A stretch of 64,000 bases of DNA from contig VBBT01000104.1 in assembly GCA_005881695.1 (NCBI GenBank), positions 14,941-78,940 on the forward strand, written 5' to 3'. The position numbers and the translations under genes were made by a program. Positions 21,686 to 60,112 of this stretch are shown piece after piece. Each line of letters starts with the position of its first letter. Within the stretch, counting starts at the first letter, position 1. This DNA is from Candidatus Bathyarchaeota archaeon. Its GTDB lineage: Archaea > Thermoproteota > Bathyarchaeia > 40CM-2-53-6. Below the pieces are notes generated by a model. It was given only the letters and a program-made list of their open reading frames with translations. It was not told where the DNA came from and searched no databases.

Positions 21686-22861
21686 CTATTTCTTGGCGGG
21701 TGTCTGCCAGCTGAAGGGATAGTTGGGATCGTCCAGCTTCTCAGCAATAGAGGTCACTTTCAACGGCTTCTTAGTCTCGATCATGATTGCAAGTTCATTG
21801 GTGGAGTCTTTTCCTAAGCTCGCTTCGACGGCCCCTGGCTGGGGTCCGTGGTGTACTCCTCTCCGGTGGAGAGTGAAGGATCCTACTTCGATTCCTCGGC
21901 GGCTGCTGAAGTCTCCGCTGACGTAGTAGAGAACCTCGTCGCTGTCGATGTTGCTGTGGTTATACGGGACGGGAATGGCTTGAGGGTGGTAGTCGAGTTT
22001 TCGCGGAACGAACGATAGCACATCGAACCCCGGTGCTTCGAAAGTCTGATGGATAGGTGGCGGTTGGTGAACGCGGCCGGTTAGGGGCTCGAAATCGTTG
22101 ACATTGAAGATCCAGGGATAGAGATAGCCGTCCCATCCGACAACATCGATTGGGTGATAGTCGAAAACATAGGACATTAGCGAGTTGTCGATCTTGACCC
22201 GGACCTCGAATTCTCCCGAATCGTTGTGTGGGACAAGTTTCTCTGGCCGACGGAAATCTCGGTCCGCGTAAGGTGCCAGTTCTACCAACTGGCCGTAATC
22301 GTTTCTATATCGCTTGGGAATCTCGATGGGCCCCGCGGATTCGGTTATCATGAACCTATTGTCTTTTCCATCTAGGTCTATTCTGTAAGTGGTCCCTCGC
22401 GGGACGACAACGAAGTCCCCCTCGCGGAAGTGTAAGGTCCCGAAGACAGACTCCAAGCTTCCTTTTCCTTCATGGATGAAGTATAGCTCGTCTCCCTGGG
22501 CGTTTCTGAAGAACCAGTCCATGCCATGGGAGGGGCGGACAGTTGAGACGAAAACATCATCATTGTAGAAGAGTGGCTGGCGTCCTTCGACCGGGTCCTT
22601 TGCCAGCTCGGAGTTCTTGGTGCGGACGTGGTGATGACGATGGAGGTCGGGCTGCCAGCGAGTTATCGCGAGCTCTTTCAGTTTCTTGATGTGAGACACT
22701 CTCGTCGGCGGGTTGATGTGGTAGAGGGTTGAGTAGACGCCCGAGAATGCTTCTGTCCCGAAAACCTCTTCCTGATACAATGACCCGTCTGGTTTTCGGA
22801 ACTGTGTATGCCTCTTGGCTGGAAGTTTGCCGAGGCTGTAATAACTAGGCAATTCGGTCAC
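21686..22861 (-). CDS. hmgA: Homogentisate 1,2-dioxygenase
   Basis: Bicupin with motifs FVVVPRGTTYRI, VVGWDGYLYPW, PVPYNHSNIDSDEV and HGPQPG. These parallel the human/bacterial HGD motifs FLIVPQ, VVAWHGNYTPY and PPYYHRNCMSEF. Confidence 0.75.
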   Translation of the reverse strand: MTELPSYYSLGKLPAKRHTQFRKPDGSLYQEEVFGTEAFSGVYSTLYHINPPTRVSHIKKLKELAITRWQPDLHRHHHVRTKNSELAKDPVEGRQPLFYNDDVFVSTVRPSHGMDWFFRNAQGDELYFIHEGKGSLESVFGTLHFREGDFVVVPRGTTYRIDLDGKDNRFMITESAGPIEIPKRYRNDYGQLVELAPYADRDFRRPEKLVPHNDSGEFEVRVKIDNSLMSYVFDYHPIDVVGWDGYLYPWIFNVNDFEPLTGRVHQPPPIHQTFEAPGFDVLSFVPRKLDYHPQAIPVPYNHSNIDSDEVLYYVSGDFSSRRGIEVGSFTLHRRGVHHGPQPGAVEASLGKDSTNELAIMIETKKPLKVTSIAEKLDDPNYPFSWQTPAKK

Positions 22862-23868
22862 TCTGACCTTTTCTCGGGGCGTATAACTTTGTTTCTCAAC
22901 GCTCCAAGTCTTTCGATCTCAAGCTCTACGATATCTCCGGGTTTTAGCCAGGGATGAGCATCCTCTCCGAGTTCCAGCAGGGACCCTGTTCCTACCGTTC
23001 CCGATCCGAACACTTCTCCTGACTGGAGCTGAACAGATTGTGATGCCCGAGCTATCATCTGGGGGAAGGTCCAGTGCATTTTGTCCATGTTTCCCATTGA
23101 CAATTGTTTGCCGTTGACTTTGGCGGTCATCTTGAGGTTGAACTTTCCAGGGCCGGTTTTTCGATCTTGTAGCTCGTCGGGTGTGACGAGCCAGGGTCCG
23201 AGGGACGTGGCGAAGTCCTTGGCCTTAGCTGGGCCGAGACCGATTTTCATCTCGCCCACCTGAACGTCTCGTGCACTCCAGTCGTTCATTATGGTGTAGC
23301 CCACGATGTGGGCTTCAGCTTCTGTCTCGGGTATGTCGATTCCGCCTCGCCCGATTACGCAAGCAACTTCCAGTTCGTAATCGAGAGTCTTAGTGTAAGC
23401 TGGATAGGGCACATTCTCTTCGGGACCGTAGACCACGCGCGGGTTAGAGTAGTAGAAGGCGGGGAACTCGTACCATTCTTGCGGCATCGGAAGGCCTCGT
23501 CGTGCTCGGGCCGACTTGACGTGGTCTTCGAATGCGTAAAAATCTCGTAACGTGGGAGGATCTGGAATCGGAGTCTTGATCCCAGCATCATCAGTCCGAG
23601 TCATGAATCGGTGAACATGCTCAGGCGCGACTCTGTTGAAGATCCGCCACGACACGGATTGAAGGTCATCCAGGAGTTTGGGGTTCCTGGATAGGATCTG
23701 TTTGATGGTGGGTGCTGCGGGTAGGTCTCGAATTGATCGTGGAGCCGGAATCTTCAGCTTCTCAGCTACGCTAGTAACTCGATCGATCTCTAGTATCCAT
23801 TCTCCCCACAGCAACCCAGTACGAGTCTTGTTCGGCGCTTTCTTTGTGCTGTAGGCGACCAGTTTCAT
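22858..23868 (-). CDS. Fumarylacetoacetate hydrolase family protein
   Basis: FAH N-domain plus the catalytic domain (GEMKIGLGPAKAKDF, GEVFGSGTVGTGSLLE); 4-nt overlap with hmgA. Confidence 0.75.
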   Translation of the reverse strand: MKLVAYSTKKAPNKTRTGLLWGEWILEIDRVTSVAEKLKIPAPRSIRDLPAAPTIKQILSRNPKLLDDLQSVSWRIFNRVAPEHVHRFMTRTDDAGIKTPIPDPPTLRDFYAFEDHVKSARARRGLPMPQEWYEFPAFYYSNPRVVYGPEENVPYPAYTKTLDYELEVACVIGRGGIDIPETEAEAHIVGYTIMNDWSARDVQVGEMKIGLGPAKAKDFATSLGPWLVTPDELQDRKTGPGKFNLKMTAKVNGKQLSMGNMDKMHWTFPQMIARASQSVQLQSGEVFGSGTVGTGSLLELGEDAHPWLKPGDIVELEIERLGALRNKVIRPEKRSE

Positions 23869-23874
23869 CTGAGG

Positions 23875-24963
23875 CTAGAGATTTCCCCGTTTCGCCTGCT
23901 CAGCTTCGATGGACTGGAACAGGGCCTTGAAGTTGCCTTTCCCAAACGATTCGCTCCCCTTCCGTTGGATAAGCTCGAAGAACAGTGTGGGCCGGTCTTG
24001 GAGGGGTTTGGTGAATATCTGGAGCATGTAGCCCTTCTCATCCTTGTCCACCAATATGCCAAGGCGTCTTAGATCATCTATCCTCTCCGAGATTCCTCCG
24101 ACGCGTTTAGGAAGCTCCGCATAGTAGCTGTCGGGTGTGCGCAGGAACTCTATTCCCCGCTCGGCCAATCTTGCGACGGTGGCGACGAGGTCTTCGGTGG
24201 AGATGGCGAGGTGTTGTACGCCGGCGCCCTTGAAATAATCTAGGTATTCTTGTATCTGCGATTTTCTCTTTCCCGCGGCGGGCTCGTTGATCGGGAACTT
24301 TACCGTCCCGCTGGGATTGCGCATGACCTTGGAGCGGAGGGCGGAGTATTCGGTGCTGATGTCCTTATCGTCGAAGCTGATGAGCTGGGTGAACCCGAAA
24401 ACGTTGCCGTAGAACTCTACCCAATAGTCCATCTTTCCCTCTTCTACGTTGGCGACCACGTGGTCGACGTGTTTCAGGCCGACAGACTCCTCTTTCCCTG
24501 GGAATGGTGTGTATCCTGGGGCGAATATTCCGCGATAGTCGTGACGTTCAATGAACGTATGCACTGTATCGCCGTAGGCTGCGATGGCGGCGCCTCGGAT
24601 CGTTCCATGGTCGTCTTTGAGTATCTTGGGTGCTTGTATTCCCTTGGCGCCGCGCCGAAGGGCTTCTTTGTATGTCCAGTCGACATCTTTGACTCGCATG
24701 GCAACGTCGGCTACACCGTCTCCGTGGGTGATTACGTACCTAGAGATAGGGTGGTCGGGGATGAGAGAGGAGGTTAGTAGGAGTCGGATGTCGCCTTGCT
24801 GCATGAGATAGGATGTCTTGTCTTTGACTCCTGTCTCAGGTCCGCTGTATGCGACGGGTGAAAAGCCGAACCCGTTTTTGTAAAAGTAGCTTGCCTGCTT
24901 CGCGTTTCCAACGTAGAGCTCGACGTAGTCTATTCCTTCTATGGGCAACGCGTCGTTCTTCAA
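23875..24963 (-). CDS. hppD: 4-hydroxyphenylpyruvate dioxygenase
   Basis: VOC-fold HPPD motifs GIDYVELYVGNAKQASYFY, QQGDIRLLLTS and a C-terminal EFF/QRKG region; 362 aa. Confidence 0.85.
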   Translation of the reverse strand: MKNDALPIEGIDYVELYVGNAKQASYFYKNGFGFSPVAYSGPETGVKDKTSYLMQQGDIRLLLTSSLIPDHPISRYVITHGDGVADVAMRVKDVDWTYKEALRRGAKGIQAPKILKDDHGTIRGAAIAAYGDTVHTFIERHDYRGIFAPGYTPFPGKEESVGLKHVDHVVANVEEGKMDYWVEFYGNVFGFTQLISFDDKDISTEYSALRSKVMRNPSGTVKFPINEPAAGKRKSQIQEYLDYFKGAGVQHLAISTEDLVATVARLAERGIEFLRTPDSYYAELPKRVGGISERIDDLRRLGILVDKDEKGYMLQIFTKPLQDRPTLFFELIQRKGSESFGKGNFKALFQSIEAEQAKRGNL

Positions 24964-46520: not shown

Positions 46521-47363
46521 TTGACCTCCTACCTGACGCTGATACGACCCCCAAATACCATCATGATCGGGCTTGGAGTGGTCATTGGCGAAGCGATAGG
46601 TCTCGGCAAGCTCCCTGGACTTCGAGAGGCCGTTTTCGGGTTCCTGACCGCATCACTGATGATGGCCGGGACAATGGTGGCCAATGACGTTTACGACGTT
46701 GAAATTGACAGGGTCAACAGCCCGCAGCGACCTCTCCCTTCCGGAACGGTAAAGACCAGAGACGCCGTCGTATTGGCAGTAGCACTTTCAGTGGCTGCGA
46801 TAGGGTTCTCCGCGCTTCTCGGTCTATGGACGTTTCTAACTGCACTTCTCGCCCTTGCTCTGATGGTTTACTATAACACGAGGGGAAAGAAGACTGGCCT
46901 GATAGGAAATGCGGTTGTAAGCTTCAACGTCGCCCTGCCTTTCTTCTACGGAGGGCTCGCCGTGGGTAATTCGATCCGGCCCCTACTGTTCATCTTCTCC
47001 GTTGTCGCATTTCTCGCGAACTTTGCCCGAGAGGTTGCGAAGGGAATCGCTGACGTGAAAGGCGACAGCCTCCGTCAAGTCCGGACCCTGGCCGTGGTTA
47101 GGGGAACCAAGGTTGCAGCACTAGCATCTGCGGGACTGTTTATCGTCGCGGTTCTGCTGAGTTTCCTCCCGCCGTTTCTCGAGACAATCTCCTGGCTGTA
47201 TTTTCCTCCCGTGATAGTAGCCGACGTTGGCTTTCTGTATTCAGCGTACAGGTTGATGGGCAATCAGACGCCTGAGAATGTTCGAGCAGTCAAACGACAT
47301 GTTCTGCTATGGATGCTGTTAGGCCTTGTGGGTTTTCTTTTGGGCGGCGCCGCTCTCCTTTGA
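46521..47363 (+). CDS. UbiA-family prenyltransferase, probable (S)-2,3-di-O-geranylgeranylglyceryl phosphate synthase
   Basis: NDVYDVEIDRVNSPQRPLPSG, the Asp-rich UbiA motif, plus 8 TM helices. It neighbours the mevalonate-pathway genes. The TTG start at 46521 retains the conserved LIRPPN segment. Confidence 0.65.
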   Translation: MTSYLTLIRPPNTIMIGLGVVIGEAIGLGKLPGLREAVFGFLTASLMMAGTMVANDVYDVEIDRVNSPQRPLPSGTVKTRDAVVLAVALSVAAIGFSALLGLWTFLTALLALALMVYYNTRGKKTGLIGNAVVSFNVALPFFYGGLAVGNSIRPLLFIFSVVAFLANFAREVAKGIADVKGDSLRQVRTLAVVRGTKVAALASAGLFIVAVLLSFLPPFLETISWLYFPPVIVADVGFLYSAYRLMGNQTPENVRAVKRHVLLWMLLGLVGFLLGGAALL

Positions 47364-48638
47364 CCTGGACATATCGAGCAGAATTTCCCTAGCCCTATCC
47401 AGGCGGATCTTCCGCTCGACGACCATCTTGTCCGCCACCAGGTCGATTAGATCGCTTTGAGCTCCAGCCATTGCGGCAATATTTCTAGCGTGAAGAGACA
47501 TGTGTCCCTTCTGAATTCCCTCTGCTGCCAAGGCTCGTAGTGCGGCCATGTTCTGAGCCAAGCCCACTGCTGCCATGACCTCGCCAAGTTCGCGGGCCGT
47601 CTTCACGCCGAGGATCTTTAGGCATATCTTCGCCATGGGGTGGACGGCGGTGACTCCGCCGATGATTCCGACGGCGGCTGGGATCTCGATCGTCCCGACT
47701 AGGTTTCCGTTGGAGTCTTTCTTCCATGTTGTGAGGGGAGAGTAATGTCCAGTTCGTGCAGCGTAAGCATGGGCCCCTGCCTCTATTGCACGAGTGTCAT
47801 TCCCGGTCGCTAGGCAGACGGCGGTTACGCCGTTCATGACTCCCTTGTTATGGGTCGCACATCTGTACGGGTCAGCGGCGGCAAACGCGTACGCCTCCAC
47901 AATGCCATCGACGATGTCTTCGCCACCGAGGGCTTCTTTCGAAACTGTCGTTGTGGCCTTGGCAACCCTTCTATCTGCTAGATTTGAAATGATCCGCAGT
48001 CGGGCTTGACCCTTGGAAATCTTCTCAACCATAGGTGCTACAGCTTCGGCCATCGTGTTGACGACATTGGCCCCCATGGCGTCGCGGCAGTCAACCAGAA
48101 GCTCAACAATAACCAATGTTCCAACTTGGCTCGGTAGGATCCTGACGCGGAGATCTTTTGCCCCTCCGCCCATCGAGAGTAGTGTTGGGTCCTGCTGGTT
48201 GGCTTTTTCGATGATCTCTTTTCTTGCCGAGAGAATTTCCTTTTCAGCATCTTTCGGCGAGGGGCATTTCACTATCTGGATCTGGCTGATCATCACAGGC
48301 TCGGTGCTGGTGGCTGTGAAGCCGCCTGTTGGTCTTGCCATCTTGGCCGCGTTGCTTGCCGCTGCGACTACTGATGGCTCTTCTATGGCCATCGGCACTA
48401 AGTAGTCTCTACCGTTAATCAGAAAGTTGGTAGCGATTCCGAGAGGGATCGGGAACATGCTGATGACGTTCTCGATCATTCGTTGCGCAGTCGCACTCGG
48501 CATTGTTCCGTTGGCTAGGGTCTGAGCCTCCTCGGAAGTTAGACCTGCGAACTCTTTGACGATTCTGAGCCTCTCTTCCAAGGGAAGCTTGTAGAACGAA
48601 GCAATGGTTGAGCTTCTGTTTAGAACCGACGTTTCCAA
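47319..48638 (-). CDS. hmgA: Hydroxymethylglutaryl-CoA reductase (class I, archaeal type)
   Basis: DAMGANVVNTMAE, GTIEIPAAVGIIGG and other HMGR signatures; 439 aa. Confidence 0.9.
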   Translation of the reverse strand: METSVLNRSSTIASFYKLPLEERLRIVKEFAGLTSEEAQTLANGTMPSATAQRMIENVISMFPIPLGIATNFLINGRDYLVPMAIEEPSVVAAASNAAKMARPTGGFTATSTEPVMISQIQIVKCPSPKDAEKEILSARKEIIEKANQQDPTLLSMGGGAKDLRVRILPSQVGTLVIVELLVDCRDAMGANVVNTMAEAVAPMVEKISKGQARLRIISNLADRRVAKATTTVSKEALGGEDIVDGIVEAYAFAAADPYRCATHNKGVMNGVTAVCLATGNDTRAIEAGAHAYAARTGHYSPLTTWKKDSNGNLVGTIEIPAAVGIIGGVTAVHPMAKICLKILGVKTARELGEVMAAVGLAQNMAALRALAAEGIQKGHMSLHARNIAAMAGAQSDLIDLVADKMVVERKIRLDRAREILLDMSRSKESGAAQKKTHKA

Positions 48639-52410: not shown

Positions 52411-52868
52411 GCGGGAATGCCTCCAATCTCTTCCGCTAGCTGAGCAACAGTGATGAAGGGAACTCTCAGCTTTGACGCGTTCGCATGAGACACAGTGTTG
52501 TAGGTTTTTCCTTCGTACTCCTTTGGAATCCCAATGTAGACCATGACTCGGTGGAAAGCCTCCTTTCCATGCGTCTTCTTCCAAGGGAGCATTCCTCTGA
52601 TAACTCTCCGGACGTAGTTGTCAGGCCTTCTAGGATGAGTTGGAGCCTTATCCTGGCTACCGAGCGTTCGCGTTTTCAGTTTTGTCTTCGCCCGCGCGAC
52701 AACTCGGGCCTTTGTCCCAGAGATGATCGCACGTTCAGCATTCAACACGACCATCTTCTTCCCCTCCAAGGCTTGCTTCGCAACGTAACTCGCCATTCTT
52801 CCCAAAATCAGATTAGATGCGTCAACAACTTCCTCTTCCGGCGAGAGGCTTGCAACCATTTTTTTCAA
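52407..52868 (-). CDS. rpl13: 50S ribosomal protein L13 (uL13)
   Basis: MKKMVASLSPEEEVVDASNLILGRMASYVAKQALEGKKMVVLNAE...; ATGA overlap with rpoD. Confidence 0.9.
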   Translation of the reverse strand: MKKMVASLSPEEEVVDASNLILGRMASYVAKQALEGKKMVVLNAERAIISGTKARVVARAKTKLKTRTLGSQDKAPTHPRRPDNYVRRVIRGMLPWKKTHGKEAFHRVMVYIGIPKEYEGKTYNTVSHANASKLRVPFITVAQLAEEIGGIPA

Positions 52869-53500
52869 CTTTCAGTCATTCCTCCAAGTCCTTCTCCGAA
52901 GCCTACGGATTTTGCGTTAATGATCCGTGCTGCCTCGAGGACAATCTTTTCGGGAGGCATAGTTCCAGTCGACTCGACAAGGAACGTGAAAGTTCGAGCT
53001 TTCTCGTCATAGTTGTAGGTCGCGGCTGAGACAGATTGCCATTTCGCGTGGACATTTCCTCTCCCCAACCGGGCGTATGCTTCGAGCTTGATCCTTTGGC
53101 CTGCAGTGAGTTTCACTATAGGGATCTTGTCCGAGACCGGCTTGACCTCCGGATTCTCAGGCTTAAGCTGGGAGGAGTATACCACCTCAATTGGTTCAGA
53201 GGCTTCTATCTCTAGCGAAAATGACGCCCGGCATTTCTCGCAGCCCAACTCGCTCTTACAGGTGCATTCTTCCGGTAGATTGTAAGAGCCGTCAGTTGTG
53301 ACAGGAACCAGTCCGAGTCGGTGCGCAAGAATCTCATCATACATAACGGAGTTATTCTCAAGGATCATGACGTCGTCAATCGCCATCACCGGAATCTCTG
53401 AAATCATTATCCGGCGTAGCGCGTTGGCAAAGGCTGGCGATACGTCTGAAAGCACGAAGCGGAGGGTCTCTTGTTCCTTGCTCAGGAGTTTAATGTCCAT
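52865..53500 (-). CDS. rpoD: DNA-directed RNA polymerase subunit D (Rpb3 homolog)
   Basis: LRFVLSDVSPAFANALRRIMISEIPVMAIDDVMILENNSVMYDEILAHRLGLVPV; 211 aa. Confidence 0.9.
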   Translation of the reverse strand: MDIKLLSKEQETLRFVLSDVSPAFANALRRIMISEIPVMAIDDVMILENNSVMYDEILAHRLGLVPVTTDGSYNLPEECTCKSELGCEKCRASFSLEIEASEPIEVVYSSQLKPENPEVKPVSDKIPIVKLTAGQRIKLEAYARLGRGNVHAKWQSVSAATYNYDEKARTFTFLVESTGTMPPEKIVLEAARIINAKSVGFGEGLGGMTES

Positions 53501-53645
53501 CTAGCTATCATACTTCCAGGATGAAGGTGACCCGGGCAAGCGGTCCGGACTTTATTTAAAGCTGACGAGAAAATGAGCCCGAAAAACCAGAACAGCCACG
53601 GAAACAGCCCCGCAGGTGGGCATTGTTATCGTAGGTAGTGAGTTG

Positions 53646-54188
53646 CTAGATCGAGAAGAAGAGGATTCCAAAGTAGATATTGACCAGCCCGATCGCGATA
53701 GCGATCGGTGGAAAGGCTAGCACTGAGCCTACGAACTCAAAAATGTCCTCGACGAACCTCAGCAAGACGTAGATTGCGAGAGTTGCAATGAGGAAGACAA
53801 CCACGAGAACGGTGGTGCTTGTAAATATGGATGGGAGAAATGTTCTGAGAAAGTATGCTATCAGCAACCCCAACGCGAGGGAGAGGAGAGAGGCCCAACG
53901 AACGTTTCGAATGGGACGTGAGATAAGAAGAATCCCGAGTAGAATCATCGCCGGCAAGAAATACTTCAGATAGGGCGAACTTGTCGACGATGCAACAGCG
54001 TCAGAAATTGCGCCCGAGAGAAATCCGAGGCTGAGGGCATAGTCAACTGCGACTATGAGCACTAGTATGCCGACAGCGAACCCTAGAACGGATAGCGCGC
54101 GTCCGAGCGCCTGAGAGACGCGTTTGAAGAGGGGGGCGCAGGCACAGATTCCTCCTGCAACTAGTATTATGCCTGCCGAGAAGACCAT
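53646..54188 (-). CDS. Hypothetical integral membrane protein (occupies the position where rps11 is usually found)
   Basis: 180 aa, 5-6 TM helices, no recognisable family. Confidence 0.4.
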   Translation of the reverse strand: MVFSAGIILVAGGICACAPLFKRVSQALGRALSVLGFAVGILVLIVAVDYALSLGFLSGAISDAVASSTSSPYLKYFLPAMILLGILLISRPIRNVRWASLLSLALGLLIAYFLRTFLPSIFTSTTVLVVVFLIATLAIYVLLRFVEDIFEFVGSVLAFPPIAIAIGLVNIYFGILFFSI

Positions 54189-54236
54189 GATCTGTGCTAG
54201 TCTCGGATGGAGTAAGTGCTCAGTTTAAGTGGCTTG

Positions 54237-54923
54237 CTACTTTTTCTCTGGTTCGGGCTCAGCTGCCAGTTCTTCCTCTGGCTCGACAAGTACCAAAGGC
54301 TGCTCCGCCTGAACTTCTTCTTTGACCTCCGGCGGAACCGCTGGGAGACCAGTTATGGCGGGCACTGCGATAGGCGCCTCCTCTATGACCCTGGCAAGTC
54401 TCTTGCCTCCGGGCGCCGCTCGCGCAGGGTGCTGCGCATTCGTCAGTGGGCTTCTCTGGTTGAAGGCTATTCTTGACTCTTCATCTCGCTTGACAATGTA
54501 ACTTGGCACTGACACAATCTCGTTTGCGATGCTGATGTGTCCATGACTGACGAACTGACGTGCCTGGTGAATACTCCTCGCCAGTCCCGACCGGTAAACG
54601 ATTGTTTGGAGACGCCTCTCCATCAAATCCTTGACATTGAGATCGAGGATATTATCGACACTGGCAGATTCCGGTAAGATTCCAAGCCGAGCGAGACGTC
54701 TAAGGTACTGGGTTTCAATCTGGGATTTTTGTTCTTCTGATCCGCCGAGGAGAGATCTTGCTATCCCGCGAATCTTCGATAGCATCGTCTCGTGACGCCT
54801 GAGTTCCCGCTTGTTTCTGAGGCCATACTCACCAAGGAGATGGAGTTCGGCTTCGAGTTGTTCCTTTCGCCATGGATGGCGAGGAGTCTCGTATGTCTTT
54901 CTCGGCTTTCTCGGATCTCCCAA
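54237..54923 (-). CDS. rps4: 30S ribosomal protein S4 (uS4) with an acidic/Pro-rich C-terminal extension
   Basis: MGDPRKPRKTYETPRHPWRKEQLEAELHLLGEYGLRNKRELRRHETMLSKIR... plus an S4 RNA-binding domain. The extra C-terminal 45 aa are rich in E/P/A/V. Confidence 0.85.
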   Translation of the reverse strand: MGDPRKPRKTYETPRHPWRKEQLEAELHLLGEYGLRNKRELRRHETMLSKIRGIARSLLGGSEEQKSQIETQYLRRLARLGILPESASVDNILDLNVKDLMERRLQTIVYRSGLARSIHQARQFVSHGHISIANEIVSVPSYIVKRDEESRIAFNQRSPLTNAQHPARAAPGGKRLARVIEEAPIAVPAITGLPAVPPEVKEEVQAEQPLVLVEPEEELAAEPEPEKK

Positions 54924-56321: not shown

Positions 56322-56618
56322 GTGCCAACCATAGAAGTCGGACGCGTCTGCGTCAAACTCAATGGGAGAGAGGCCGGCCGCAAATGCGTCATAGTCGACG
56401 TTATCGACAAGAACTTTGTTCTCATCACGGGACCCAAGAAAGTGAACGGAGTCCGTCGTCGTCGAACCAACGTCAAACATGTTGAACCGACCCCGGAGAC
56501 CATCGAGATCAAGAAGGGCGCAGCTGACGAGGACGTCGCCAAAGTAGCTGAAAAGGCGAAGAAGACAGACTATCTGAAAGAGATAGTCACAATCAAAGAG
56601 ATCAGCGTAGCAGCCTAG
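56322..56618 (+). CDS. rpl14e: 50S ribosomal protein L14e
   Basis: MPTIEVGRVCVKLNGREAGRKCVIVDVIDKNFVLITGPKKVNGVRRRR. KOW-like. Confidence 0.85.
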   Translation: MPTIEVGRVCVKLNGREAGRKCVIVDVIDKNFVLITGPKKVNGVRRRRTNVKHVEPTPETIEIKKGAADEDVAKVAEKAKKTDYLKEIVTIKEISVAA

Positions 56619-56715: not shown

Positions 56716-57776
56716 GTGGTGGAGAAAAGTCGGTTGTCACAACAGGCTCCCTGGAATAAGTCACAGAAATTGCTCGTCAAGCTCGACGAGGAGACAGACC
56801 CGGCGTTAGGCTGTCCGCCAGAGAAGAGGACGATTGATCAGCACATCCGGTTCGGTCTGATCAACCTGGATAAGCCCTCAGGCCCATCAAGCCACGAAGT
56901 CGTCGCTTGGGTCAAACGTCTCCTTCGGTTGAACCACGCTGGCCACGGTGGAACTCTAGAGGTCCCCTTCGGGGCCGGAGTAATCCGATGGTCACCGGCG
57001 TTCTTCCGCTCGCCCTAGAAGACGCTACCAAGACGATCCAGGCATTCCTCCTCACCGGGAAGGAGTACGTCTGCCTAATGACAATGCACGGCGACGTCGA
57101 CCAGACCAAACTCCGCGGTGTACTGGAGGAATTTGTCGGCGACATATTCCAGAAACCCCCAGTGAGAGCCGCGGTCAAGAGGGAAGTCCGGAAAAGAACA
57201 ATCTACTCGATCGACGACGTAGAAATTGATGGCAGACAGGTTCTATTCCGCGTCGCCTGTCAGGCAGGAACCTACATCCGGAAACTAGTTTACGATGTCG
57301 GAGAAGTTCTCGAAGTAGGCGCTCATATGCGAGAACTCCGCAGAACGAGATCCGGATCCTTCACCGAAAGGGACGTACATTCACTCTACGATATACTCAA
57401 ACTCTCTCAGGCCTCTTCGGACGACAGGGAAGGGATGGTCCGGCAAATCATCAGACCGATGGAAGACGCGTTCGACTATGTTCCGCGAATCTACATTCGC
57501 GACTCTGCCGTTAGCTCAATATGCCACGGGGCAGATCTTGCTGTTCCTGGGATAGTCAAGCTAAGCGAGGGGATACGTCCCAAGACCGCGATCGCGCTTT
57601 TTACGCTCAAAGGAGAACTCGTCGCATTATCAAGAGCCCTTATCGGAACCGAACAGATGATGAAGGACGAGCGCGGGCTCGCTGCTAAGACGGTTAGAGT
57701 GATCATGCCGACTGACACCTATCCCAAGCTGTGGAAACCGAAGCACCGTCGTTCCGTGGTAACCCAGTTCAATTGA
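56716..57776 (+). CDS. cbf5: tRNA/rRNA pseudouridine synthase Cbf5 (H/ACA RNP catalytic subunit); interrupted by a 23-nt intron at 56961..56983
   Basis: Exon 1 (frame 1) ...LINLDKPSGPSSHEVVAWVKRLLRLNHAGHGGTL and exon 2 (frame 2) PMVTGVLPLALEDATKTIQAFLLTGKEYVCLMTMHGD... Removing ggtccccttcggggccggagtaa joins cta-ga|t-ccg, giving GHGGTL-D-PMVTG. That is the universal TruB/Cbf5 catalytic motif GTLDPxVTG, with the Asp codon split by the intron. The intron folds into a cCCC-UUC-GGGg hairpin. Confidence 0.8.
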
Positions 57777-59077: not shown

Positions 59078-59195
59078 GGCCGGGATTCCTGAGCCTGGTA
59101 CAGGGCAGTCCACTAGAACCGTGTGGGCCAAAGCCTGGAAAAATGGGCTCCTGTCAGCCTGTGGTCCTTGCGGGCCGCGTGGGTTCAAATCCCAC
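59078..59195 (+). tRNA. tRNA gene, probably containing an intron (anticodon unresolved; D-arm and T-arm are canonical)
   Basis: gccggga-tt-cctg-agcctggta-cagg ... gtggg-TTCAAAT-cccac-tcccggc-g-CCA. The 7-bp acceptor stem, D-arm, T-arm and encoded CCA are all present. About 40 extra nt lie between the D-arm and T-arm, so a canonical anticodon arm cannot be drawn without removing an intron. A possible class II variable hairpin is ggtcc-ttgc-gggcc. Confidence 0.5.
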
Positions 59196-59335
59196 TCCCG
59201 GCGCCAACCTAAGAATCAGCTGTGACGAGCATGTTTTCTTCGGTGTGTTTGGTGCATCTCTTTCGGCCCGAGTCTTCGTATTGCTCTCTTGTGAATATAC
59301 TTGTTGAGAGGATTTAGTCCTAGGGTTTTTGAGAA

Positions 59336-59998: not shown

Positions 59999-60112
59999 TG
60001 GTGCGGGAGGTGGGATTCGAACCCACGAACCCCTACGGGACAGGCGCCTCAGGCCTGCGCTTACACGACCCTTGATCGAAGGGTCTCTTTGACCTGGCTT
60101 GGCAACTCCCGC
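59999..60112 (-). tRNA. tRNA gene with extra sequence (intron), possibly class II tRNA-Leu(GAG)
   Basis: Minus-strand sense: gcgggag-tt-...-caggc-cTGAGgc-gcctg-tcccgtaggggttc-gtggg-TTCGAAT-cccac-ctcccgc-a-CCA. Acceptor, T-arm and CCA are clear. There is a 5-bp stem with a 7-nt loop, cUGAGgc (U33, GAG, G37), followed by a 14-nt variable arm. About 28 extra nt in the D-region include the hairpin gaccctt-cgatc-aagggtc. Confidence 0.45.

Follow-up and report, generated by a model that had tools for sequence, protein, structure and literature searches.

In a 64,000-nucleotide stretch of the genome of a Candidatus Bathyarchaeota archaeon (contig VBBT01000104.1, positions 14,941 to 78,940 of the forward strand; hereafter the window), the reading frame of cbf5, the gene of the pseudouridine synthase Cbf5, is broken by a 23-nt insert that lies within the codon of the catalytic Asp. 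This insert is very probably a pre-mRNA intron of the archaeal bulge-helix-bulge (BHB) type, situated at the position known for the cbf5 intron in Sulfolobales and Desulfurococcales and presumably removed by way of the tRNA splicing endonuclease EndA and the ligase RtcB. Only two archaeal mRNAs, that of cbf5 among them, are documented as substrates of the tRNA splicing machinery, and in reviews up to 2023 the cbf5 intron is still described as limited to a small set of related archaea (PMC10485636). The presence of inserts at the same bond in Bathyarchaeia, Culexarchaeia, Caldarchaeales and Jordarchaeia suggests an old and widely retained feature instead of a local crenarchaeal oddity. Indeed, this wider distribution is the more interesting by-product of the analysis and re-opens the question of the intron's purpose.

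The broken cbf5 reading frame and its repair

The cbf5 gene spans positions 56716..57776 of the window (+ strand) and, as the first-pass annotation had stated, its reading frame shifts straight after the motif GHGGTL. The sequence of 56940..56990 reads GGC CAC GGT GGA ACT CTA GA ggtccccttcggggccggagtaa T CCG ATG GTC ACC. The open reading frame (ORF) 56716..57018 is translated as ...AGHGGTLEVPFGAGVIRWSPAFFRSP before its stop codon (in a longer reading up to the stop, ...HAGHGGTLEVPFGAGVIRWSPAFFRSP), and a second frame, containing ...NPMVTGVLPLALEDA..., continues to the stop at 57776. When all frame-restoring deletions of 14-39 nt with start points at 56951..56972 were tried, only 56961..56983 and 56960..56982 (23 nt each) gave GHGGTL-D-PMVTG with a single terminal stop, the product being identical in both cases because an A stands at each border. 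The repaired Cbf5 is 345 aa long, bears the DKCLD, TruB_N, TruB_C_2 and PUA domains, and shares 59% identity with the intron-less Bathyarchaeota Cbf5 P0041, to which it aligns without a gap at the junction (AGHGGTLDPMVTGVLP vs AGHGGTLDPKVTGVLP). The first-pass annotation had removed 56961..56983 to restore the active-site motif with an Asp codon across the junction; the product stands, whereas the cleavage rule of BHB motifs puts both cuts 1 nt upstream. With these borders, the gene is divided as follows:

56716..56959 (+): cbf5 exon 1, with DKCLD and the start of TruB_N; its 3' end, ...GGA ACT CTA G, codes for G-T-L and supplies base 1 of the split Asp codon
56960..56982 (+): predicted intron, 23 nt, AGGUCCCCUUCGGGGCCGGAGUA; its removal gives the same product as that of 56961..56983
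56983..57776 (+): cbf5 exon 2, whose AT completes GAT = Asp, followed by PMVTGVLPLA..., the rest of TruB_N, TruB_C_2 and PUA
57774..57776 (+): cbf5 stop codon

The position of the start codon is uncertain: GTG 56716 comes first among the starts that follow a stop, and P0041 aligns only from residue 12 onward. The predicted spliced junction is ...GGAACTCTAG joined to ATCCGATGGTC, with ATCCAATGG as a variant within the clade. The interruption of the catalytic Asp codon by an insert whose removal gives GHGGTL-D-PMVTG is the defining trait of the archaeal cbf5 intron. Since the unspliced sequence has no Asp codon at the catalytic position and its translation would stop 19 codons past GHGGTL, an active pseudouridine synthase could be made only from spliced mRNA.

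The nearest genomic relatives of the window are metagenome-assembled genomes (MAGs) of soil Bathyarchaeia, first among them locus L001 (VBBD01000025; 97% amino-acid identity), then L002-L009 and L015. The ~75 closest database proteins (72-92% identity) are nearly all ~260-290 aa long, start just past the break and cover ~75% of the query, which indicates that gene callers meet the same break throughout the clade; full-length Cbf5 database proteins of ~335 aa appear only at 55-63% identity. In an exact-pattern scan of metagenome contigs, 48 carried the clade's form of the intron and 0 an intron-less junction in the same exon flanks. Met follows Asp-Pro in the soil clade only, Lys being usual at this residue, and creates the codon ATG 56988, which sits 7 nt downstream of the intronic GGAG (56977..56980). 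This GGAG may be a Shine-Dalgarno-like motif, judging from its sequence. Because of the clade-specific ATG, databases hold a ~262-aa "Cbf5" that starts with MVTGV and lacks the catalytic Asp, and ~30 close database proteins were called in this form. Archaeal phylogenomics employs Cbf5 as a marker, and such truncated entries can distort both annotation and marker-gene sets.

A relaxed BHB motif maintained by compensatory changes

The insert and its exon flanks fold into a BHB with the following parts:

56954..56957 (+): 5' strand of the central helix, CUCU (Thr codon positions 2-3 and Leu codon positions 1-2), paired with 56977..56980
56977..56980 (+): 3' strand of the central helix, GGAG, intronic, paired with 56954..56957
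56958..56960 (+): 5' bulge AGA, with the predicted cut between G56959 and A56960, after the second bulge nt
56981..56983 (+): 3' bulge UAA, with the predicted cut between A56982 and A56983
56961..56976 (+): inner helix h', 6 bp, GGUCCC (56961..56966) paired with GGGGCC (56971..56976) around the loop CUUC (56967..56970)
56950..56952 and 56984..56986 (+): outer helix h, GGA (Gly codon) paired with UCC and offset by the unpaired A56953, as in the RNAalifold consensus

In a single-sequence fold of the 76-nt stretch 56935..57010, pair probabilities are 0.97-1.0 in the central helix, 0.95-1.0 over the central and inner helices together, and ~0.33 in the outer GGA/UCC helix. The stable hairpin that had been claimed for the excised segment is thereby recovered as GGUCCC-CUUC-GGGGCC, its pairs all having probabilities of 0.95 or more. 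Two 3-nt bulges are spaced by exactly 4 bp, as in the canonical motif of outer helix, bulge, central helix, bulge and inner helix (hBHBh'). The strict form of that motif also has at least two Watson-Crick outer pairs abutting the 3' bulge; here the strict-register outer helix reads A-U, A.C, G-C, G.G, and of the adjoining pairs only A56953-U56984 forms. As a 3-bp outer helix arises only with A56953 left unpaired, the motif is relaxed and HBh'-like. In the minimum free energy fold an extra fifth pair, A56953-U56981, is formed, and the strict BHB is 1.6 kcal/mol costlier. The splicing endonuclease cuts each bulge between its second and third residues (PMC2738675), a rule that, applied to the window, yields an intron at 56960..56982 and the junction CUAG-AUCC, i.e., CTA GAT CCG = L-D-P. 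When 56935..57010 was scanned for BHB motifs (4-bp helix, 3-nt bulges, cuts between the second and third nt), 8 candidates were obtained, and only 56960..56982 equals a frame-restoring deletion. Folding for an hBHBh' or a relaxed BHB therefore returns the relaxed form, with predicted cuts that yield an in-frame junction.

Among the related genome loci, 77 could be scored at the cbf5 site, and 46 of them carry a 16-35 nt insert at exactly this site, after GA and before Y of GAY. Together with the window, these make up an alignment (A1) of 47 sequences, 44 of which are distinct; insert length varies from 16 to 35 nt over the 47 loci, and the site is invariant. The comparison with the relatives' cbf5 shows a structure conserved by compensatory changes. 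Over the 44 distinct sequences the central helix is 99.4% paired, with CG, UA and AU exchanges: its second pair, which joins the third position of the Thr codon to an intronic partner, is C-G in 21, U-A in 20 and A-U in 3, and its third pair alternates between C-G and U-A. Double (compensatory) changes occur in all four tested pairs of the inner helix, which is 93% paired, and the strict-register outer helix is 68% paired in the 47-locus alignment. The 5' bulge is NGA in 46/47 sequences and AGT in L034. The covariation score reaches 0.378 vs 0.147 +/- 0.013 in shuffles, none of which scored as high (0/500), and all scores in slid registers are <=0.14. RNAalifold independently gives the same h-B-H-B-h' layout, with compensatory changes at 7/11 pairs. 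The two flanking helices trade off: loci with 0-1 inner pairs (L026-L028, L037 and L059) have a 6-bp outer helix (GGGGGA/UCCUCC), and introns with 5-10 inner pairs (e.g., those of the window and L001-L009) have a poor one, a pattern that fits an enzyme needing one flanking helix.

At first sight, a frame-breaking insert of 23 nt in an essential gene resembles an error, be it an assembly or sequencing indel or the mark of a decaying pseudogene. The probability of such an origin is vanishingly small, given an insert present in 47 loci of independent assemblies and in 48 metagenome contigs with no intron-less form of the clade, given its compensatory changes, and given ratios of nonsynonymous to synonymous substitution rates (dN/dS) far below 1 in both exons. 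Against relatives, dN/dS is ~0.07-0.24 in exon 1 and ~0.04-0.05 in exon 2 where dS is estimable, and both exons are under purifying selection.

The frame could also be restored without splicing by translational recoding, i.e., a frameshift or a ribosomal bypass of the hairpin, and a stable hairpin does lie just past the break. However, no GAY codon exists at the site in the unspliced sequence, so that recoding cannot restore the Asp, and a frameshift would add ~8 residues to the active-site loop. Moreover, the relatives' introns of length divisible by 3 (21, 27 and 30 nt), which are in frame, all carry stop codons (9/9), and across the lengths of 16-35 nt in the 47 loci there are no conserved slippery or take-off/landing codons. 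Recoding is accordingly considered a highly improbable explanation.

A further alternative dispenses with any repair of the frame: the gene would yield two polypeptides, or just one product of 262 aa from ATG 56988. This reading draws on the clade-specific K-to-M change, which makes an ATG behind the Shine-Dalgarno-like GGAG, and on the database entries of the clade, which are annotated in this manner (the ~30 proteins of ~262 aa from MVTGV). Yet these entries are the output of gene callers and do not amount to evidence of expression, and neither piece has the catalytic Asp, so the unspliced products would be inactive. Most other intron-bearing lineages retain the structure although they lack a start codon downstream of the intron (PKVTG, PPATG); exon 1 is under purifying selection; and the base covariation between exon and intron would be left without an explanation if the RNA structure were not used. 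Expression without splicing is thus quite improbable, if somewhat less so than recoding.

Several observations weigh against a spliced BHB intron. The single-sequence fold is unexceptional, with a fold z-score of only -1.5; BHB-like patterns are common by chance, with 335 in the window vs 287-310 in block shuffles; and the poor strict-register outer helix (A-U, then A.C) leaves no canonical hBHBh'. The spliced junction was not matched in the metagenome contigs, a collection that possibly holds DNA only, and Pfam scans of ~70 ORFs of the window (ORF 47319..48638 left out) detected neither endA nor rtcB. Homotetrameric and homodimeric forms of EndA are reported not to cut relaxed motifs (PMC5829648); the (alpha-beta)2-type EndA is widely conserved in TACK archaea (PMC5829648). 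The significance of the structure comes instead from its exact coincidence with a frame break that falls within the codon for the catalytic Asp, from the covariation among 47 homologues and from the 48 independent metagenome contigs.

In archaeal tRNA splicing, the ends produced by EndA are a 2',3'-cyclic phosphate and a 5'-OH, and the exons are joined by RtcB. On this model, cbf5 would be transcribed with the 23-nt insert included, and the exonic CUCU of the Thr and Leu codons would pair with the intronic GGAG to form a 4-bp central helix, flanked by the AGA and UAA bulges, with the 6-bp intron hairpin inside and the weak GGA/UCC helix outside. EndA would then cut past the second nt of each bulge (between G56959 and A56960, and between A56982 and A56983), and an RtcB-type ligase would join the exons, creating the GAU codon of the catalytic Asp. 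For the cbf5 intron, we infer EndA cleavage and RtcB ligation by analogy with tRNA splicing, and any regulatory role would be hypothetical.

Relation to known introns and distribution across Archaea

The cbf5 pre-mRNA intron of Sulfolobales and Desulfurococcales was reportedly the subject of work by Watanabe in 2002 and Yoshinari in 2006. It is 16-44 bp long and splits the codon that specifies the catalytic residue (Yokobori 2009, PMC2738675); the crenarchaeal BHBs are mostly unconventional, and cDNA of several species bears out the splice borders (PMC2738675). The window's intron has the same gene, the same Asp codon split between GA and Y, no ORF, a relaxed BHB and the gene order L14e-cbf5 in common with it, and its 23 nt fall inside the reported 16-44 nt. 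The cbf5 gene of Staphylothermus marinus F1 (L081) appears in its annotation as a pair of ORFs, and its insert, whose 36 nt agree with PMC2738675, lies at the identical site between GA and C; the L14e-cbf5 order is common to this species and the window (L14e at 56322..56618). In strict BHB register, the S. marinus intron forms only 2/4 central pairs (hand-read), in line with the unconventional motifs of PMC2738675. A metagenomic locus of crenarchaeal type (L083) carries a 31-nt insert with a CCCU/GGGG helix and an AGA bulge. Because it matches the known family in each feature compared, the window's element is assigned to the archaeal cbf5 intron family. On the one hand, the crenarchaeal hosts are hyperthermophiles and their cbf5 splicing was demonstrated by cDNA and in vitro cleavage; on the other hand, the window's host belongs to the mesophilic soil Bathyarchaeia and the splicing of its intron is predicted from sequence.

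Other introns resemble the window's element less closely. Archaeal tRNA introns with a canonical hBHBh' share its two 3-nt bulges, 4-bp helix and intronic closing helix (Marck and Grosjean 2003; Thompson and Daniels 1990), and presumably also the enzyme and the cut positions; unlike them, the window's substrate is an mRNA without a tRNA body, and its outer helix is offset by an unpaired A or reduced to a single A-U. In tRNAs, HBh' motifs are cut only by (alpha-beta)2 or epsilon2 EndA (PMC5829648). The intron of HVO_1309 in Haloferax volcanii is likewise a BHB in an mRNA, and its removal is EndA-dependent (PMC7714728), but it lies in the 5' untranslated region, belongs to a euryarchaeal host with a homodimeric enzyme and splits no codon, whereas the window's intron splits the catalytic codon, which would make splicing obligatory for function. 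HAC1/XBP1 splicing in eukaryotes similarly removes a short mRNA intron without a spliceosome, an endonuclease making the cuts and RtcB or tRNA ligase the joins, and changes the frame; there, Ire1 cuts stem-loops as part of a stress-regulated switch, whereas the cbf5 intron is a BHB and is not known to be regulated. A group I or group II self-splicing intron, with its ribozyme core of several hundred nt, was rejected as a candidate, the insert being only 23 nt long and the window having no Rfam match in a gathering-threshold run.

The first-pass annotation had held that cbf5 introns were known only from some Crenarchaeota and that this one could be new for its lineage. The literature searched, which included few subscription journals, does confine them to Sulfolobales and Desulfurococcales (PMC2738675; PMC7714728; PMC10485636), and for lineages beyond Crenarchaeota, such as Bathyarchaeota, Aigarchaeota and Asgard archaea, it yielded no mention of a cbf5 intron. 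The claim of novelty for Bathyarchaeia is thus upheld in that literature; the first claim describes the published record, but the actual range is wider, taking in most sampled Bathyarchaeia and several other lineages. The Bathyarchaeia intron shares its codon with the crenarchaeal intron and is the same element, a known kind in a new lineage.

Every scorable Bathyarchaeia locus of the survey except L036 has the intron, as do all four Culexarchaeia loci (L044, L053, L054 and L078). Three further carriers, L050 (named Methanomethylicota) and L046 and L048 (both named Nitrososphaerota), cluster with Culexarchaeia by Cbf5, and L059, a Candidatus Pelearchaeum, a genus of Caldarchaeales (Aigarchaeota), has an intron at the same cbf5 codon; the inserts of Culexarchaeia and of these four loci are 20-29 nt long with full BHB geometry. 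In two MAGs of Jordarchaeia (Asgard), inserts of 30 nt (L033:2451-2500) and 35 nt (L047:1145-1199) interrupt the same Asp codon, as does a 27-nt insert in a "Thermoproteota" MAG that clusters with Jordarchaeia (L035:2454-2500), and the central helix of all three is a compensated CACU/GGUG. The intron is absent from the sampled Euryarchaeota, Hod-, Thor- and Wukongarchaeota and Methanomethylicaceae, from Bathyarchaeia L036 and from the Desulfurococcales MAG L049. The intron-less cbf5 genes of Bathyarchaeia (L036, P0041 and P0089) read continuously as CTA GAC CCA, a state that fits a clean loss of the intron inside this class. In a rough neighbour-joining tree, the intron-bearing genes all stand among Cbf5 branches of TACK (Thermoproteati) type, which form no single clade, and the Jordarchaeia Cbf5 is placed among these branches, apart from other Asgard, so that transfer or mis-binning is possible.

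The distribution bears on whether the Bathyarchaeia intron, spliced by EndA from the same kind of BHB, was gained independently and is only convergent with that of Sulfolobales and Desulfurococcales. In 2009 the cbf5 intron was taken to have arisen in the ancestor of these two orders, and it was reported missing from Thermoproteales, Cenarchaeum, Nitrosopumilus and Korarchaeum (Yokobori 2009, PMC2738675). Those absences, together with the patchy distribution seen here (L036, P0041, P0089, Methanomethylicaceae and L049 being without intron), speak for independent gain. The conserved intron bases (GGNG, NNA) are moreover those imposed by pairing with conserved codons, and sequence similarity is therefore no proof of common descent. 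However, the phase, between GA and Y, is identical in all lineages; the carriers all stand among TACK-type Cbf5 branches, with none in Euryarchaeota or other Asgard; precise loss is already documented (PMC2738675); and for insertion to recur at a single phosphodiester bond, some targeting mechanism would be required, of which none is known. We therefore regard independent gain as unlikely, and the simplest reading of the history is that of an old intron that was precisely lost more than once. More tentatively, the intron may be an ancient TACK feature, maybe shared with Jordarchaeia, and retained over a very long period at a single bond of the catalytic codon, in mesophiles and thermophiles alike, because it gates the production of active Cbf5; the ATG of the soil clade might also give a dead, PUA-containing 262-aa product from unspliced mRNA. 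This extended proposal, though possible, is doubtful as a whole. Since the intron occurs in mesophiles, explanations that invoke high temperature are weakened.

Intron-bearing tRNA genes and other features of the window

A tRNA-Leu(GAG) gene at 59999..60112 (-) contains a 26-nt intron in its D arm (60061..60086), a non-canonical position, and removal of AGACCCTTCGATCAAGGGTCGTGTAA gives a perfect 88-nt tRNA-Leu(GAG) with an encoded CCA. The motif of this intron is a relaxed BHB with a 7-bp inner helix, AGA/AAG bulges and 2/4 central pairs (hand-read). The intron is conserved in L004, L005 and L008, and its hairpin changes appear pairing-neutral (by eye, uncounted). With such an intron in a D arm, the organism must splice non-canonical positions with relaxed motifs; splicing of relaxed motifs goes with the (alpha-beta)2-type EndA in the literature, which would lend indirect support, by analogy, to the splicing of cbf5.

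At 59079..59206 (+) lies a tRNA-like gene whose variable arm is long and of Ser type and whose anticodon region is enlarged by ~40 nt. It scores 31.5 bits with the Rfam tRNA model, in a local search only, and an intron-permitting ARAGORN run assigns it to Pro, Thr or Ser depending on the relative. The gene is syntenic and conserved in L001-L015, with a conserved CUGGAA stretch that is possibly a Ser GGA anticodon loop, and it may hold two introns. Both intron-bearing tRNA genes came to light in a local Rfam search and in ARAGORN's intron-permitting mode; default ARAGORN and the whole-window Rfam run at gathering threshold returned nothing, which was misleading. As an intron finder, the window-wide BHB pattern scan proved useless (335 matches vs ~300 in shuffles). 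Inspection of adjacent same-strand ORF pairs in the window gave no sign of a second mRNA intron.

On the minus strand, the ribosomal cluster S13-S4-(S11)-RpoD-L13-S9-RpoN-S2 has no S11 gene between S4 (54237..54923) and RpoD (52865..53500); the gap, 53501..54236, contains a very hydrophobic ORF of 180 aa (53646..54188) with no Pfam match. Elsewhere, at 21686..24963 (-), genes matching the HPPD-type and homogentisate dioxygenase families and a fumarylacetoacetate hydrolase adjoin a proline dehydrogenase and an Fe-alcohol dehydrogenase, a cluster that points to tyrosine/homogentisate degradation in a member of the soil Bathyarchaeia.

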